Origin: Naegleria gruberi
Taxonomy: Eukaryota
Strand: one strand, 5' to 3'
DNA length: 1,016 bases
NCBI GenBank assembly: GCA_000004985.1
Contig: GG739616.1
Part shown: piece by piece, positions 3-680 of the stretch
Layout of the letters: each line of letters opens with the position of its first letter
Position numbering within the stretch: the first letter of the stretch is position 1
Program-made: the position numbers and the translations under genes
The notes under the pieces: generated by a model
Database searches by the model: none
What the model was told of the DNA's origin: nothing
Seen by the model: the letters and a program-made list of their open reading frames with translations, nothing else

Positions 3-143
3 TTCAAACCATATGATCCTAATCATATTCCATCAAAGAATTCAATTAATAAGAGAAATCATTTACCAGTAGTTCAACCAGTTCCTGTTTCCAACACTGT
101 AAAACTAATCTTCAAGCCAAAGAAGAACAATAATAATAAGTGA
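3..143 (+). CDS. Partial CDS (3' end of a gene that starts upstream of the window). Translation: FKPYDPNHIPSKNSINKRNHLPVVQPVPVSNTVKLIFKPKKNNNNK, then TGA at 141-143. Alternatively an exon ending at 139 with a GTGAGT donor at 140-145.
   Basis: Forty-six consecutive sense codons from the window edge in a stop-prone AT-rich sequence. Third positions are strongly A/T-biased and non-random (cca x6 for Pro, gtt/gta for Val, aag/aat), and the tail is Lys/Asn-rich. It ends at TGA 141-143. The context aag|GTGAGTAC is also a textbook 5' splice donor, so termination versus splicing cannot be decided from sequence. I recognise no protein family. Confidence 0.4.
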   Translation, partial: FKPYDPNHIPSKNSINKRNHLPVVQPVPVSNTVKLIFKPKKNNNNK

Positions 144-202
144 GTACTTTTCATCTCTTGATGACTACCGGGAATGAAATTTCCTAATTTGGAAGATGAC
201 TT

Positions 203-250
203 GCTTCAACAACAATAATAACAACATAACAAATACAAACAATAATAAAT
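203..250. repeat. Low-complexity (CAA/AAC/AAT)n-like tract: ttgcttcaacaacaataataacaacataacaaatacaaacaataataaa
   Basis: Imperfect trinucleotide-type simple sequence, read directly. It lies in the presumptive 3' UTR or intron after the 3..143 coding segment. Confidence 0.5.
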
Positions 251-274
251 TGGGTTTATTAATGTTTATTAAAT

Positions 275-292
275 AGTGACCGTTAGGTCACT
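275..292. repeat. Perfect inverted repeat / hairpin: AGTGACC-gtta-GGTCACT (7-bp stem, 4-nt loop)
   Basis: Read directly: 275-281 AGTGACC, 282-285 GTTA, 286-292 GGTCACT. It is GC-containing and embedded in AT-rich flanks. Confidence 0.7.
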
Positions 293-362
293 GATTGTTT
301 ATTGTTAATTAATTATTGATGATGAATAGATACCACTCTGATTGTAAAAATACTTAAAAACT

Positions 363-460
363 CAGAGTAATCACCGTGACGCCAAATTAACATATAATAA
401 TAACACATTATTAATGTACTACCGTGTCGCCAAATTCCTTGATAATTATTCATAACTGTA
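363..460. repeat. Two-unit tandem repeat with a period of 48 bp. Unit cores are accgtgacgccaaatt (373-388) and accgtgtcgccaaatt (421-436).
   Basis: Direct repeat 48 bp apart. It produces the duplicated IWRHG in the track ORF translation. The cores resemble the taccgggaatgaaatttcc core of repeats A and B (taccgtgtcgccaaattcc at 420-438, about 13 of 19 identical). Confidence 0.5.
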
Positions 461-517
461 ACTTCTTGATCTAAAGACACTCGAGCATTTGATTTCACAC
501 AAAACTCTCGTTCATAC

Positions 518-607
518 CATGGGCACCGGGAATGAAATTTCCAAATAAGGAATGACCGATATCATTCAACTATTACTAACTAACACACACTAACAAAACA
601 AATTGAA
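518..607. repeat. Copy B of a diverged direct repeat of about 90-100 bp, contiguous with the tRNA-like unit. On the minus strand it ends with the T-arm/acceptor-like motif GGAAATTTCATTCCCGGTGCCCA.
   Basis: An 18-nt identical core accgggaatgaaatttcc (525-542) is shared with copy A (167-184). The flanks align at roughly 65-70% with indels (…ggaa-gatgac…ttcaac…taac…aacaaa…aaattg…). Confidence 0.6.
595..598 (-). terminator. T4 run (minus strand TTTT) immediately 3' of the T-loop of the tRNA-like unit. It is a potential Pol III terminator that would give a transcript of about 60-65 nt.
   Basis: Minus strand reads ...GGGTTCAATTtgTTTTgtta. Four or more T residues terminate Pol III in many eukaryotes (established knowledge). 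Whether four suffice depends on species. Confidence 0.25.
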
Positions 608-651
608 CCCGGGTCGCCAGAGTGACAGTCTGGAATGCTACCACTATACCA
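601..651 (-). promoter_or_regulatory. Internal Pol III promoter elements of the tRNA-like unit: A box (641-651, TGGTATAGTGG) and B box (601-609, GGTTCAATT, 3' part of the consensus missing)
   Basis: Both match the consensus TRGCNNAGTGG / GGTTCGANTCC at the canonical positions of the tRNA-like sequence. The B box lacks the terminal CC. Confidence 0.35.
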
Positions 652-658
652 CACCCGA
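601..658 (-). pseudogene. tRNA-Asp(GUC)-derived sequence, 5' two-thirds intact (acceptor 5' strand to T-loop), 3' T-stem/acceptor missing or displaced. It is a tRNA pseudogene or the tRNA-related head of a repeat.
   Basis: Minus strand reads TCGGGTG-TG-GTAT-AGTGGTA-GCAT-T-CCAGA-CTGTCAC-TCTGG-CGAC-CCGGG-TTCAATT. The acceptor 5' strand is 7 nt and T8 is present. The D-arm carries an A-box-like TGGTATAGTGG, with one A:C mismatch in the D-stem. The anticodon stem is a perfect 5-bp helix (CCAGA/TCTGG) with a 7-nt loop CTGTCAC, T33, anticodon GTC and A37. The variable region is 4 nt, the T-stem is CCGGG and the T-loop TTCAATT is B-box-like. The next bases are tgttttg instead of CCCGG plus the acceptor 3' strand, so a cloverleaf cannot close. 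The overall primary sequence resembles eukaryotic nuclear tRNA-Asp genes (GTATAGTGGTA...CTGTCAC...GACCCGGGTTC). Confidence 0.55.
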
Positions 659-680
659 TTTCACATAAATTCATCTATCG

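Follow-up and report, generated by a model that had tools for sequence, protein, structure and literature searches.

Probable relic of a eukaryote-type tRNA-Asp(GUC) gene, split in its T arm and accompanied by partial local copies

tRNA pseudogenes and locally duplicated relics of tRNA genes are documented for eukaryotic nuclear genomes in the parts of the literature drawn on here (PMC2888827; PMC4981973). SINEs, which can be derived from tRNAs, are defined in SINEBase as interspersed, non-tandem repeats (PMC3531059). T-loop introns are known from nuclear tRNA genes of Cyanidioschyzon merolae, and the bulge-helix-bulge (BHB) motif on which such ectopic introns depend is built, in the section of the source used here, from a 4-bp helix with one or two bulges of 3 nt, flanked at the exon-intron junctions by helices longer than 2 bp (PMC3728597).

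The window, that is, the whole stretch of 1,016 nt that was analysed, holds a cluster (Table 1) that we read, with a probability of roughly 60%, as what remains of a nuclear tRNA-Asp(GUC) gene of the eukaryote type and of partial copies that it left nearby by local duplication, i.e., as decaying, non-functional DNA. As in tRNA pseudogenes, a tRNA body can still be recognised despite disabling lesions, here the split T arm, the fraying of the acceptor stem and a mismatch in the D arm, and as in tRNA gene relics, there are neighbouring partial copies that share its orientation, with comparator contigs carrying intact tRNA-Asp duplicates a few hundred nt apart; unlike the pseudogenes and relics in the portions of those accounts considered, however, the lesion is a clean 70-nt interruption between two T-loop copies, and the duplicated segment comprises the insert and the 3' remnant, not the whole gene (PMC2888827; PMC4981973). 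With tRNA-derived SINEs the locus shares a head that is related to a tRNA and contains an A box, a body of unassigned origin, an overall size near 150 nt and what may be a flanking direct repeat of 13 nt, whereas it differs from them in having no simple-repeat tail, in the clustering of its copies, two of which are seen in the window (PMC3531059), and in a 3' end that resembles the missing tRNA 3' end, not a usual module of SINEs. The intervening T-loop sequence, whose removal restores a cloverleaf, recalls the BHB-dependent introns of C. merolae, but as far as that source goes in the section used, the locus departs from them in its lack of a BHB motif, even a relaxed one, in the defective mature product that it would give and in the length of the insert, 70 nt as compared with 22 nt for an example intron (PMC3728597). 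Unlike such introns, the insert is also conserved in no homologue examined.

Table 1. Positions and strands of the features recognised in the window.
Positions	Strand	Feature	Basis
150-252	-	Repeat unit X, copy A: homologous to 511-605; includes TTCATTCCCGG (178-168) and the acceptor-like TAGTCAT	Smith-Waterman, BLAST, TTCAATTCCCGG search
253-340		AT-rich stretch upstream of copy A; hairpin AGTGACC/GGTCACT at 275-281/286-292; AU-rich hairpin at 296-328	
367-457	-	Tandem pair at a spacing of about 48 nt, with cores at 373-401 and 421-449	Repeat family D2, shuffles
491-503	-	Partner TTTGTGTGAAATC of the 13-nt repeat, 14 nt past the 3' remnant	Repeat family D9
511-605	-	Copy B of repeat unit X, made up of a T-loop remnant, the insert, the tRNA 3' remnant and a trailer of about 8 nt	Smith-Waterman, BLAST
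518-530	-	tRNA 3' remnant: T-stem 3' strand CCCGG (530-526), acceptor 3' strand TGCCCAT (525-519), G (518)	
531-600	-	70-nt insert of unassigned origin, splitting the T arm	ARAGORN, comparators, Rfam
531-600	-	Insert start TGTTTTG; T4 run at 598-595	
536-531	-	Second T-loop copy TTCATT at the insert end, 1 nt shorter	
601-658	-	5' part of a eukaryote-type tRNA-Asp(GUC), 58 nt (tRNA positions 1-60)	Rfam RF00005 and identity
658-652	-	Acceptor 5' strand	
649-635	-	D arm	
633-617	-	Anticodon arm	Anticodon GTC at 626-624
616-613	-	Variable loop CGAC	
612-608	-	T-stem 5' strand	
607-601	-	T loop TTCAATT	
657-669	-	13-nt direct repeat TTTATGTGAAATC, adjoining the tRNA 5' end	Repeat family D9

The best-defined component of the cluster is the minus strand from 658 to 601, which represents positions 1-60 of a tRNA-Asp(GUC). 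Its match to Rfam RF00005 (31.5 bits, E 1.7e-5) is 3'-truncated, spans model positions 1-58 of 71 and passes the gathering score of 29 only when the search is cut at 601; a scan of the whole window returned no tRNA match at E <= 10. The closest sequences are the genuine eukaryotic tRNA-Asp genes L003 and L007 (83% identity over 59-60 nt), and every alignment to tRNA-Asp genes ends exactly at 601. The isotype features are present, namely the 7-nt anticodon loop CTGTCAC on a 5-bp stem, the 4-nt variable loop and a short D loop of the eukaryote type, and on reading the sequence the A box TGGTATAGTGG appears intact. By the same reading, the anticodon stem deviates from the common consensus by two changes of C-G to A-T pairs, and since these keep the pairing, the segment descends from a working tRNA. 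The D stem contains an A12.C23 mismatch, and the D loop is 1 nt shorter than in every comparator. An initial annotation had described two longer tRNA-like copies, A on the left and B on the right; the tRNA-Asp identity proposed for copy B is strongly borne out by the Rfam score, by the identity to real genes and by ARAGORN after joining of the two tRNA parts, and the copy B anticodon hairpin with its GTC had been read correctly.

In the native sequence, ARAGORN yielded nothing credible in its standard, intron, lowered-threshold, mitochondrial and tmRNA modes; lowered-threshold calls with 'introns' of 229-756 nt and a mitochondrial tRNA-Asn call at 237-301 were set aside as artefacts. A tRNA-Asp(gtc) is found only after about 531-600 have been removed in silico, and in the joined cloverleaf the T stem is paired at 5/5 positions below a 7-nt loop TTCAATT, while the acceptor stem consists of three G-C pairs, two G-U pairs and the mismatches U1.U72 and C2.A71. 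A complete contiguous cloverleaf is therefore absent natively, the T arm being split by 70 nt between the two T-loop copies TTCAATT and TTCATT, and the acceptor stays defective even after joining. The initial annotation had overlooked this break, and with it the fact that the insert and the 3' remnant, not the tRNA body, are the duplicated parts. For the 3' remnant, pairing alone carries little weight (with G-U allowed, an equal 3' partner arises in 603/5000 shuffles), and a sequence-based test with TTCAATTCCCGG was therefore used. At <=1 edit this motif is matched at 536->526, with any such match occurring in 16/3000 shuffled windows, and in the window the minus strand alone carries remnants of this kind, at 536->526 and 178->168 and nowhere else (p about 0.005).

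The insert itself gave no match in an Rfam search of 505-600. By eye, a GTC lies in register at anticodon positions 34-36 of the insert. The identity in that register is lower than the mean of the shuffles, and derivation of the insert from a decayed second copy of the tRNA was rejected, the alignments being not significant (167/2000 and 1302/2000 shuffles reach the score). Should the locus instead be a working tRNA-Asp(GUC) gene whose T loop holds an ectopic intron of 70 nt, cut out by the tRNA splicing endonuclease, the spliced product would join ...GGGTTCAATT to CCCGGTGCCCA at the 601/530 junction. Such introns have the C. merolae precedent cited above, in the part of that source used; the cloverleaf accepted by ARAGORN upon removal of 531-600 has a perfect T stem and the 7-nt T loop, and the exons can be joined at more than one point within ATT, an ambiguity often seen at intron borders. 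Ectopic BHB-dependent tRNA introns also occur in Crenarchaeota. An exhaustive scan, however, revealed no BHB motif at the insert: one candidate central helix is compatible with a T loop of 6-8 nt, and it is flanked by no pairs at all, outer (0) or inner (0). The fold constrained to the cloverleaf reaches -20.0 kcal/mol as against a minimum free energy of -33.3, the pre-tRNA fold has a z-score of -0.4, and a second copy of the insert (in copy A) is joined to no recognisable tRNA body. Because no BHB exists, the acceptor is frayed (two terminal mismatches, two G-U pairs), a T4 run follows 2-5 nt (third to sixth base) into the insert and 0 of about 120 related eukaryotic tRNA-Asp genes have an insert at this T-loop position (after TTCAATT), we regard an intron as extremely unlikely.

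Copies A and B of unit X, which lie 358 nt apart in the same orientation, provide the sole significant self-similarity in the window (self-BLAST of 525-605 against 167-252: 74% over 87 columns, E 8e-9). A Smith-Waterman comparison of 511-605 with 150-252 scored 216, a value reached by 0/500 shuffles (101 +/- 13.6), and the alignment comprises 76 matches, 16 mismatches and 14 gap columns, corresponding to 83% identity over ungapped columns. Homology begins almost exactly at the T-loop break. The statement that the two longer units align over about 90 bp thus holds, and the self-comparison proposed along with it extends significantly past the 18-nt core; the idea that the shared part is a 'tRNA-like body' does not, as it consists of the insert and the tRNA 3' remnant. 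The AT-enrichment ascribed to copy A is real (27.8% GC as compared with 43.3% in copy B).

Conservation within unit X is uneven: a 28-nt block (167-194/525-552) is identical at 25/28 positions, the remainder of the unit in 41/61 columns. This contrast, and a TTCC-N6-GGAA inverted repeat kept in both copies while the loop sequences differ, would fit a reading in which the block (TTCC-N6-GGAAATTTCATTCCCGGT, minus strand) or the entire unit is a selected functional element, for example a chromatin site related to TFIIIC and the B box, a site for a transcription factor or a segment of a small RNA, with a tRNA likeness that is historical only. The hairpins are, however, thermodynamically trivial (z-scores -0.2 and +0.4), there is no Rfam match, and the block, as far as its sequence can be read, is devoid of the B-box GG and carries a 1-nt deletion relative to GGTTCAATTCC. 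Moreover, the contrast rests on 28 columns, with gaps concentrating in AT-rich simple sequence, and as there are two copies only, the comparison has no power to detect selection; a functional role of this kind seems improbable to us. The external B box is a dictyostelid-style feature, and an assignment of the block to it was discarded on account of the missing GG and the 1-nt deletion versus the B box. That the T-loop interruption is no damage but a 70-nt intervening sequence, removed independently of a BHB from a gene that supplies tRNA-Asp, or that unit X with its conserved 28-nt block is a selected, Pol III/TFIIIC-related tRNA-3'-half element, we consider highly improbable.

Upstream of copy A, in the AT-rich stretch 253-340, tRNA ancestry is not demonstrable, the alignments being at chance level or marginal. 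With standard gaps the score against the tRNA is reached by 211/1000 shuffles, with cheap gaps by 32/1000, and against a consensus tRNA-Asp by 997/2000; an Rfam search of the stretch returned no tRNA. A decayed tRNA as the body of copy A was rejected on these grounds. Both hairpins and both AGTGGTA segments described in the initial annotation exist at their positions, but the D-arm and anticodon-arm assignments made for copy A have no statistical support, and its 7-bp hairpin has a 4-nt loop and is one of two AT-rich hairpins whose best fold is on the plus strand (z-score -4.2 for plus-strand 270-345, -3.0 for minus-strand 345-253). A C/D box snoRNA on the plus strand of 270-343 was likewise rejected, as DdR17, the best match, stays far under its gathering score of 80 (20.1 bits, E 2.4). 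This segment does contain UGAUGA (317-325) and CUGA (338-341, 291-294), its 5' box reads AUAGUGA as against the canonical C box RUGAUGA (the canonical D box being CUGA), and no terminal stem is evident.

Four copies of a core motif had been listed as one set, and their coordinates were confirmed: ACCGNG-N4-5-AAATT occurs at 167, 373, 421 and 525, all on the plus strand, with 0 matches in 200 shuffles, a post hoc count given that the pattern was derived from the same sequence. The set nevertheless falls into two unrelated pairs, 167/525 and 373/421, as cross-pair alignment scores are reached by 579/1000 and 752/1000 shuffles. The first pair is the T-loop/T-stem 3' remnant. The second belongs to the 48-nt tandem duplication that sits between the two X copies, is 76% identical over 29 nt, reads AATTTGGCG(A/T)CACGGT(A/G) on the minus strand and has a score reached by 0/1000 shuffles. 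A link of 367-457 to the variable-loop/T-stem segment of the tRNA is marginal: the tRNA with its 5' flank aligns to 512-405 at a score reached by 7/1000 shuffles (22/1000 with strict gaps), and the copies may represent a variable-loop and T-stem/acceptor remnant minus the T hairpin.

All pieces of the cluster have one orientation and lie within 500 bp. The satellite-like option that had been offered was not sustained, since Tandem Repeats Finder gives only a 10-nt unit x 1.9 at 254-272. As to a head-to-tail array, the 48-nt duplication amounts to two copies, and unrelated sequence separates the X units. The position of the 13-nt repeat is suggestive, either of a flank resembling a target-site duplication or of the start of the next tandem unit. 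Taken alone, this repeat is at chance level in the self-BLAST (E 3.1). Direct 13-mers with <=1 mismatch are in excess, numbering 7 in the window versus 0.86 +/- 0.92 in shuffles, and speak for the relic reading.

The repeat enters into the proposal that dispersed, tRNA-Asp-derived SINE or retroposon copies are present, copy B at its full length of about 153 nt and copy A 5'-truncated from the T-loop region; copy B would then consist of a tRNA-related head (positions 1-60), a 70-nt body and a tRNA-3'-like end with a short trailer, within a 13-nt target-site duplication. The 83% identity of the head to tRNA-Asp over 59-60 nt may suffice for the identity criterion of SINEBase, its length being borderline (PMC3531059), the A box TGGTATAGTGG is intact, the direct repeat TTTRTGTGAAATC at 669-657 and 503-491 brackets copy B, the abrupt start of A/B homology near the head/body junction is as expected for a 5'-truncated copy, and the region upstream of copy A is not tRNA-like. 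On the other hand, neither copy has an A-rich or simple-repeat 3' tail, and the copies sit close together, in one orientation and inside 500 bp, beside other tRNA-like fragments, whereas SINEBase wants interspersed, non-tandem repeats. The chance-level 13-nt repeat (E 3.1) takes in the first two tRNA bases and its similarity may extend further (7/1000), and copy A has no clear target-site duplication around it. Nor was a related sequence found in viral, metagenome and prokaryote collections, which are poor proxies for the source genome: the exact 29-mer and 33-mer patterns of the tRNA part had no match in viral, prokaryote-genome and metagenome collections, the pattern of the 28-nt 3' block none in viral contigs, and the 18-nt core gave only chance-level matches in the collections scanned. 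We treat a dispersed SINE as an unlikely alternative. BLASTN against phages gave no match, the tail of the left open reading frame has no homologue and is not on record, and the right open reading frame has no viral relative. Relics of prokaryotic integrase att sites (attL/attR) were dismissed, the tRNA being of the eukaryotic type and not restored at the junction, with no prokaryote match.

Among the options offered in the initial annotation (SINE-like, satellite-like, array), a locally duplicated pseudogene array provides the best fit, and a broken tRNA-Asp gene with local duplicates is the reading we prefer. The pseudogene features are U1.U72, C2.A71, the two acceptor G-U pairs, A12.C23 and the D loop short by 1 nt. 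Local duplication of a tRNA-Asp gene is commonplace, as direct duplicates 367-1100 nt apart are present in the comparator contigs L007, L058 and L063. An insertion into the T loop or an internal rearrangement would have inactivated the gene, unequal crossing-over or replication slippage would then have duplicated parts of the locus, and point mutations and AT-rich expansions would later have eroded the copies, copy A most. If Pol III initiated from the intact A box and a partial B box, termination would probably occur in the TTTT stretch that lies 2-5 nt (third to sixth base) beyond the break, and no usable tRNA would result. Against this relic reading, a single duplication of the whole unit predicts that the tRNA body of copy A be preserved as well as unit X (83%), and this body is unrecognisable; the start of homology at the break would be no less compatible with a retroposed copy truncated at its 5' end or with an independent repeat unit; and the better conservation of the 28-nt block (25/28 versus 41/61) could hint at constraint. 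That the relic is a single locus is assumed.

The value of the locus lies mainly in annotation, where it is a clear example of a tRNA gene dying and leaving partial local copies. Because its T arm is split, tRNA finders miss it entirely, and it risks being left unannotated between genes or being taken for a new repeat family. Its importance would be greater only if the insert were spliced or if unit X were dispersed or conserved; the locus would then point to a tRNA gene of unusual structure or to a new mobile element, small and derived from a tRNA, in a poorly sampled AT-rich lineage.

We read this locus, at a probability of about 0.6, as a broken nuclear tRNA-Asp(GUC) gene with an interrupted T loop that was partly copied locally and is now decaying. 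When the search was cut at position 601, the Rfam tRNA model matched 658->601 in the 1016-nt window (33% GC) with 31.5 bits (gathering 29, E 1.7e-5), spanning model positions 1-58 of 71 and flagged as 3'-truncated. ARAGORN, in any mode, and an Rfam scan of the whole window at E <= 10 reported no tRNA in the native sequence because the T arm is broken; when approximately 531-600 was removed in silico, ARAGORN returned tRNA-Asp(gtc) at every junction that restored a T loop of 6-8 nt. The insert is bracketed by two copies of the T loop, TTCAATT and TTCATT.

Components of the tRNA-Asp relic (copy B) and the neighbouring reading frame
Feature	Position	Strand	Sequence or remark
tRNA-Asp(GUC), positions 1-60	658->601	minus	TCGGGTG TG GTAT AGTGGTA GCAT T CCAGA CTGTCAC TCTGG CGAC CCGGG TTCAATT
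Insert, unrelated sequence	600->531	minus	70 nt directly after TTCAATT
T-stem 3' strand	530->526	minus	CCCGG, past the 70-nt insert
Acceptor 3' strand	525->519	minus	TGCCCAT, past the 70-nt insert
Left ORF tail	ends 141-143	plus	TGA

For comparison, we collected 120 loci from a metagenome scan with the pattern CTGTCAC-N6-GACCCGGGTTCAATT, all 120 of which contain eukaryote-type tRNA-Asp genes. In every gene uncut by a contig end, the T-stem 3' strand directly follows TTCAATT, and an insertion at this point occurs in none of them. This strand reads CCCGG except for single-base variants in two genes; next comes the acceptor 3' strand, with a T run after it in most genes. The 12-mer TTCAATTCCCGG stays unchanged across nearly all comparators, two carrying single-base variants. 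BLASTN aligned the window to these loci with 72-88% identity across 50-81 nt (83% across 59-60 nt for loci L003 and L007), and the alignments end exactly at 601 with the sole exception of L093. Together with the Rfam match, this bears out the tRNA-Asp origin that the initial annotation had proposed for copy B. The anticodon stem of copy B (CCAGA/TCTGG) differs from the common consensus CCCGC/GCGGG by two paired changes that keep the pairing, and we therefore conclude that copy B descends from a working tRNA. Its variable loop has 4 nt. Marks of a pseudogene are an A12.C23 mismatch and a D loop whose 7 nt fall 1 nt short of every comparator; the acceptor stem obtained by in-silico joining adds U1.U72 and C2.A71 mismatches as well as two G-U pairs.

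Intact direct tRNA-Asp duplicates, a few hundred nucleotides apart, are present in L007, L058 and L063. The L007 pair (723-796 and 1090-1163, tRNA-Asp(GTC)) belongs to a cluster of seven tRNAs and is directly oriented and identical across the compared stretch; its spacing of 367 nt is similar to that of the two X units in the window, 358 nt (see below). Another metagenome contig, L033 (1-1165), carries eight tRNA genes in 1.1 kb and looks viral or organellar; its tRNA-Asp combines an unusual acceptor stem (GATGCTA/TAGCATC) with the CGAC variable loop of the window relic.

Could the insert be an intron? Ectopic T-loop introns are known from nuclear genes of Cyanidioschyzon merolae and from Crenarchaeota, but they need bulge-helix-bulge motifs, i.e., 3-nt bulges around a 4-bp helix with flanking helices longer than 2 bp (PMC3728597). 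An exhaustive scan yielded one central-helix candidate that fits a T loop of 6-8 nt, with zero flanking pairs. The cloverleaf-constrained fold reaches -20.0 kcal/mol compared to -33.3 kcal/mol for the unconstrained minimum, in which the cloverleaf is destroyed, and the z-score of the fold under this reading is -0.4. Furthermore, a TTTT run is located at 598->595, 2-5 nt inside the insert. Such runs terminate Pol III in many eukaryotes, and this one would probably do so too. An intron is thus highly improbable.

Self-comparison of the window gave one significant match, 525-605 versus 167-252 (E 8e-9, 74% identity, 87 columns), which Smith-Waterman alignment widens to 511-605 versus 150-252 (score 216 versus 101 +/- 13.6; reached by 0 of 500 dinucleotide shuffles). 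This unit, X, begins at the T-loop remnant CAATT, spans insert and tRNA 3' remnant and finishes in a short trailer. The alignment of about 90 bp described previously for the two longer copies is therefore real, but it covers insert and 3' remnant rather than a tRNA body. Identity is 25/28 in a block at 167-194/525-552 and 41/61 in the columns upstream of it. At one edit or less, the window contains two minus-strand matches to TTCAATTCCCGG, 536->526 and 178->168, and no others; as any such match appears in just 16 of 3000 shuffled windows, both X units end in a true T-arm 3' remnant. A third 11-mer of the form TGAAATT(T/C)CC(A/T), repeat family D3, is located at 742-752, upstream of the tRNA and sharing the strand of the two 3' blocks (E 22); it may be a further eroded remnant or chance.

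A tRNA-like body had also been assigned to copy A, the second longer unit. In 253-340, AGTGGTA, ATTC, GTCACT and ACCC..AATTT do follow in tRNA order, yet alignment to the tRNA part of copy B was equalled in 211 of 1000 shuffles with standard gaps (32 of 1000 with cheap gap extension) and alignment to consensus tRNA-Asp in 997 of 2000, and Rfam found no tRNA in this segment alone. These alignments are at chance or marginal level; tRNA ancestry of 253-340 is possible, not demonstrable. The 7-bp hairpin of copy A has a 4-nt loop and adjoins a second, AU-rich hairpin (274-297 and 296-328); for the two together, the best fold is on the plus strand (z = -4.2). On this strand, 270-345 weakly resembles several C/D box snoRNA models, far below threshold (DdR17 20 bits, gathering 80), with UGAUGAUGA at 317-325 and CUGA at 291-294 and 338-341; the first hairpin plus a T-rich run weakly matches bacterial terminator-containing sRNA models. 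A large imperfect AT-rich palindrome with nested inverted repeats (I2, I6, I7, I8; centre ~265) occupies 205-326, downstream of the left ORF.

The copies might alternatively represent a tRNA-derived SINE, which we consider unlikely. The start of homology between A and B very nearly coincides with the head/body junction, as in a 5'-truncated retrocopy, and the 13-nt direct repeat TTTRTGTGAAATC flanks copy B just 5' of the tRNA (669-657) and 14 nt beyond the 3' remnant (503-491). This repeat alone is, however, at chance level (E 3.1) and may be the start of a next decayed tandem unit; a simple-repeat tail is absent, and the copies are clustered, not interspersed. By the criteria of SINEBase (PMC3531059), the tRNA identity of copy B is borderline. 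A sequence resembling ATC.A.AGATGAA comes after the X unit of copy A (150-162) and also before the tRNA 5' flank (670-682). These boundary repeats, each at chance level alone, hint at a longer-period array reaching past 682. Exact scans for the tRNA 29-mer or 33-mer and the 28-nt block in viral contigs, and for the tRNA 33-mer in prokaryote genomes and metagenomes, gave no match; phage BLASTN, protein searches and exact-protein look-up were empty. The 18-nt core had 31 scattered prokaryote matches and one viral match, near-perfect identity never extending beyond ~20-25 nt, as expected by chance. Tandem Repeats Finder detected no satellite.

Direct 13-mers with at most one mismatch are enriched in the window (7 versus 0.86 +/- 0.92 in shuffles). 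The cores at 373-388 and 421-436 form a tandem duplication with 48-nt spacing (76% identity, 29 nt, 0 of 1000 shuffles), reading AATTTGGCG(A/T)CACGGT on the minus strand. They marginally resemble TGGCGAC-CCGG-T of the tRNA, its variable loop and T-stem 3' strand in the state expected had the T hairpin between the two CCGG repeats been lost; shuffles equalled the similarity in 31 of 1000 cases for the tRNA part alone and in 7 of 1000 with the 5' flank (22 of 1000 with strict gaps). To the 167/525 blocks they are no more similar than expected by chance. The four-copy core motif, a pattern defined post hoc with four matches versus none in shuffles, therefore resolves into two unrelated pairs sharing C.CGGT and AATTT.

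Convincing coding sequence was not found between ~143 and 830. Judging from a consensus 5' splice donor, GTGAGT, at 140-145 (plus), overlapping the TGA, and a perfect branch-point-like heptamer, TACTAAC, at 574-580 (plus), the left ORF might continue past an intron that would carry the tRNA relics in antisense. Another plus-strand ORF, of 45 codons (~604-741), runs antisense to the tRNA part and overlaps it.

In the favored scenario, interruption of the T loop would have broken the gene, local copying of break, insert, 3' remnant and trailer would have followed, and the whole locus, with the further small tandem duplication that lies between the two X copies, would now be eroding. The intact direct duplicates among the comparators indicate that the process seeding such clusters is commonplace. 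The locus is thus a further instance of an already known kind of sequence, an ordinary feature whose one mildly curious detail is that the T loop is split cleanly, with a T-loop copy on either side of the split.
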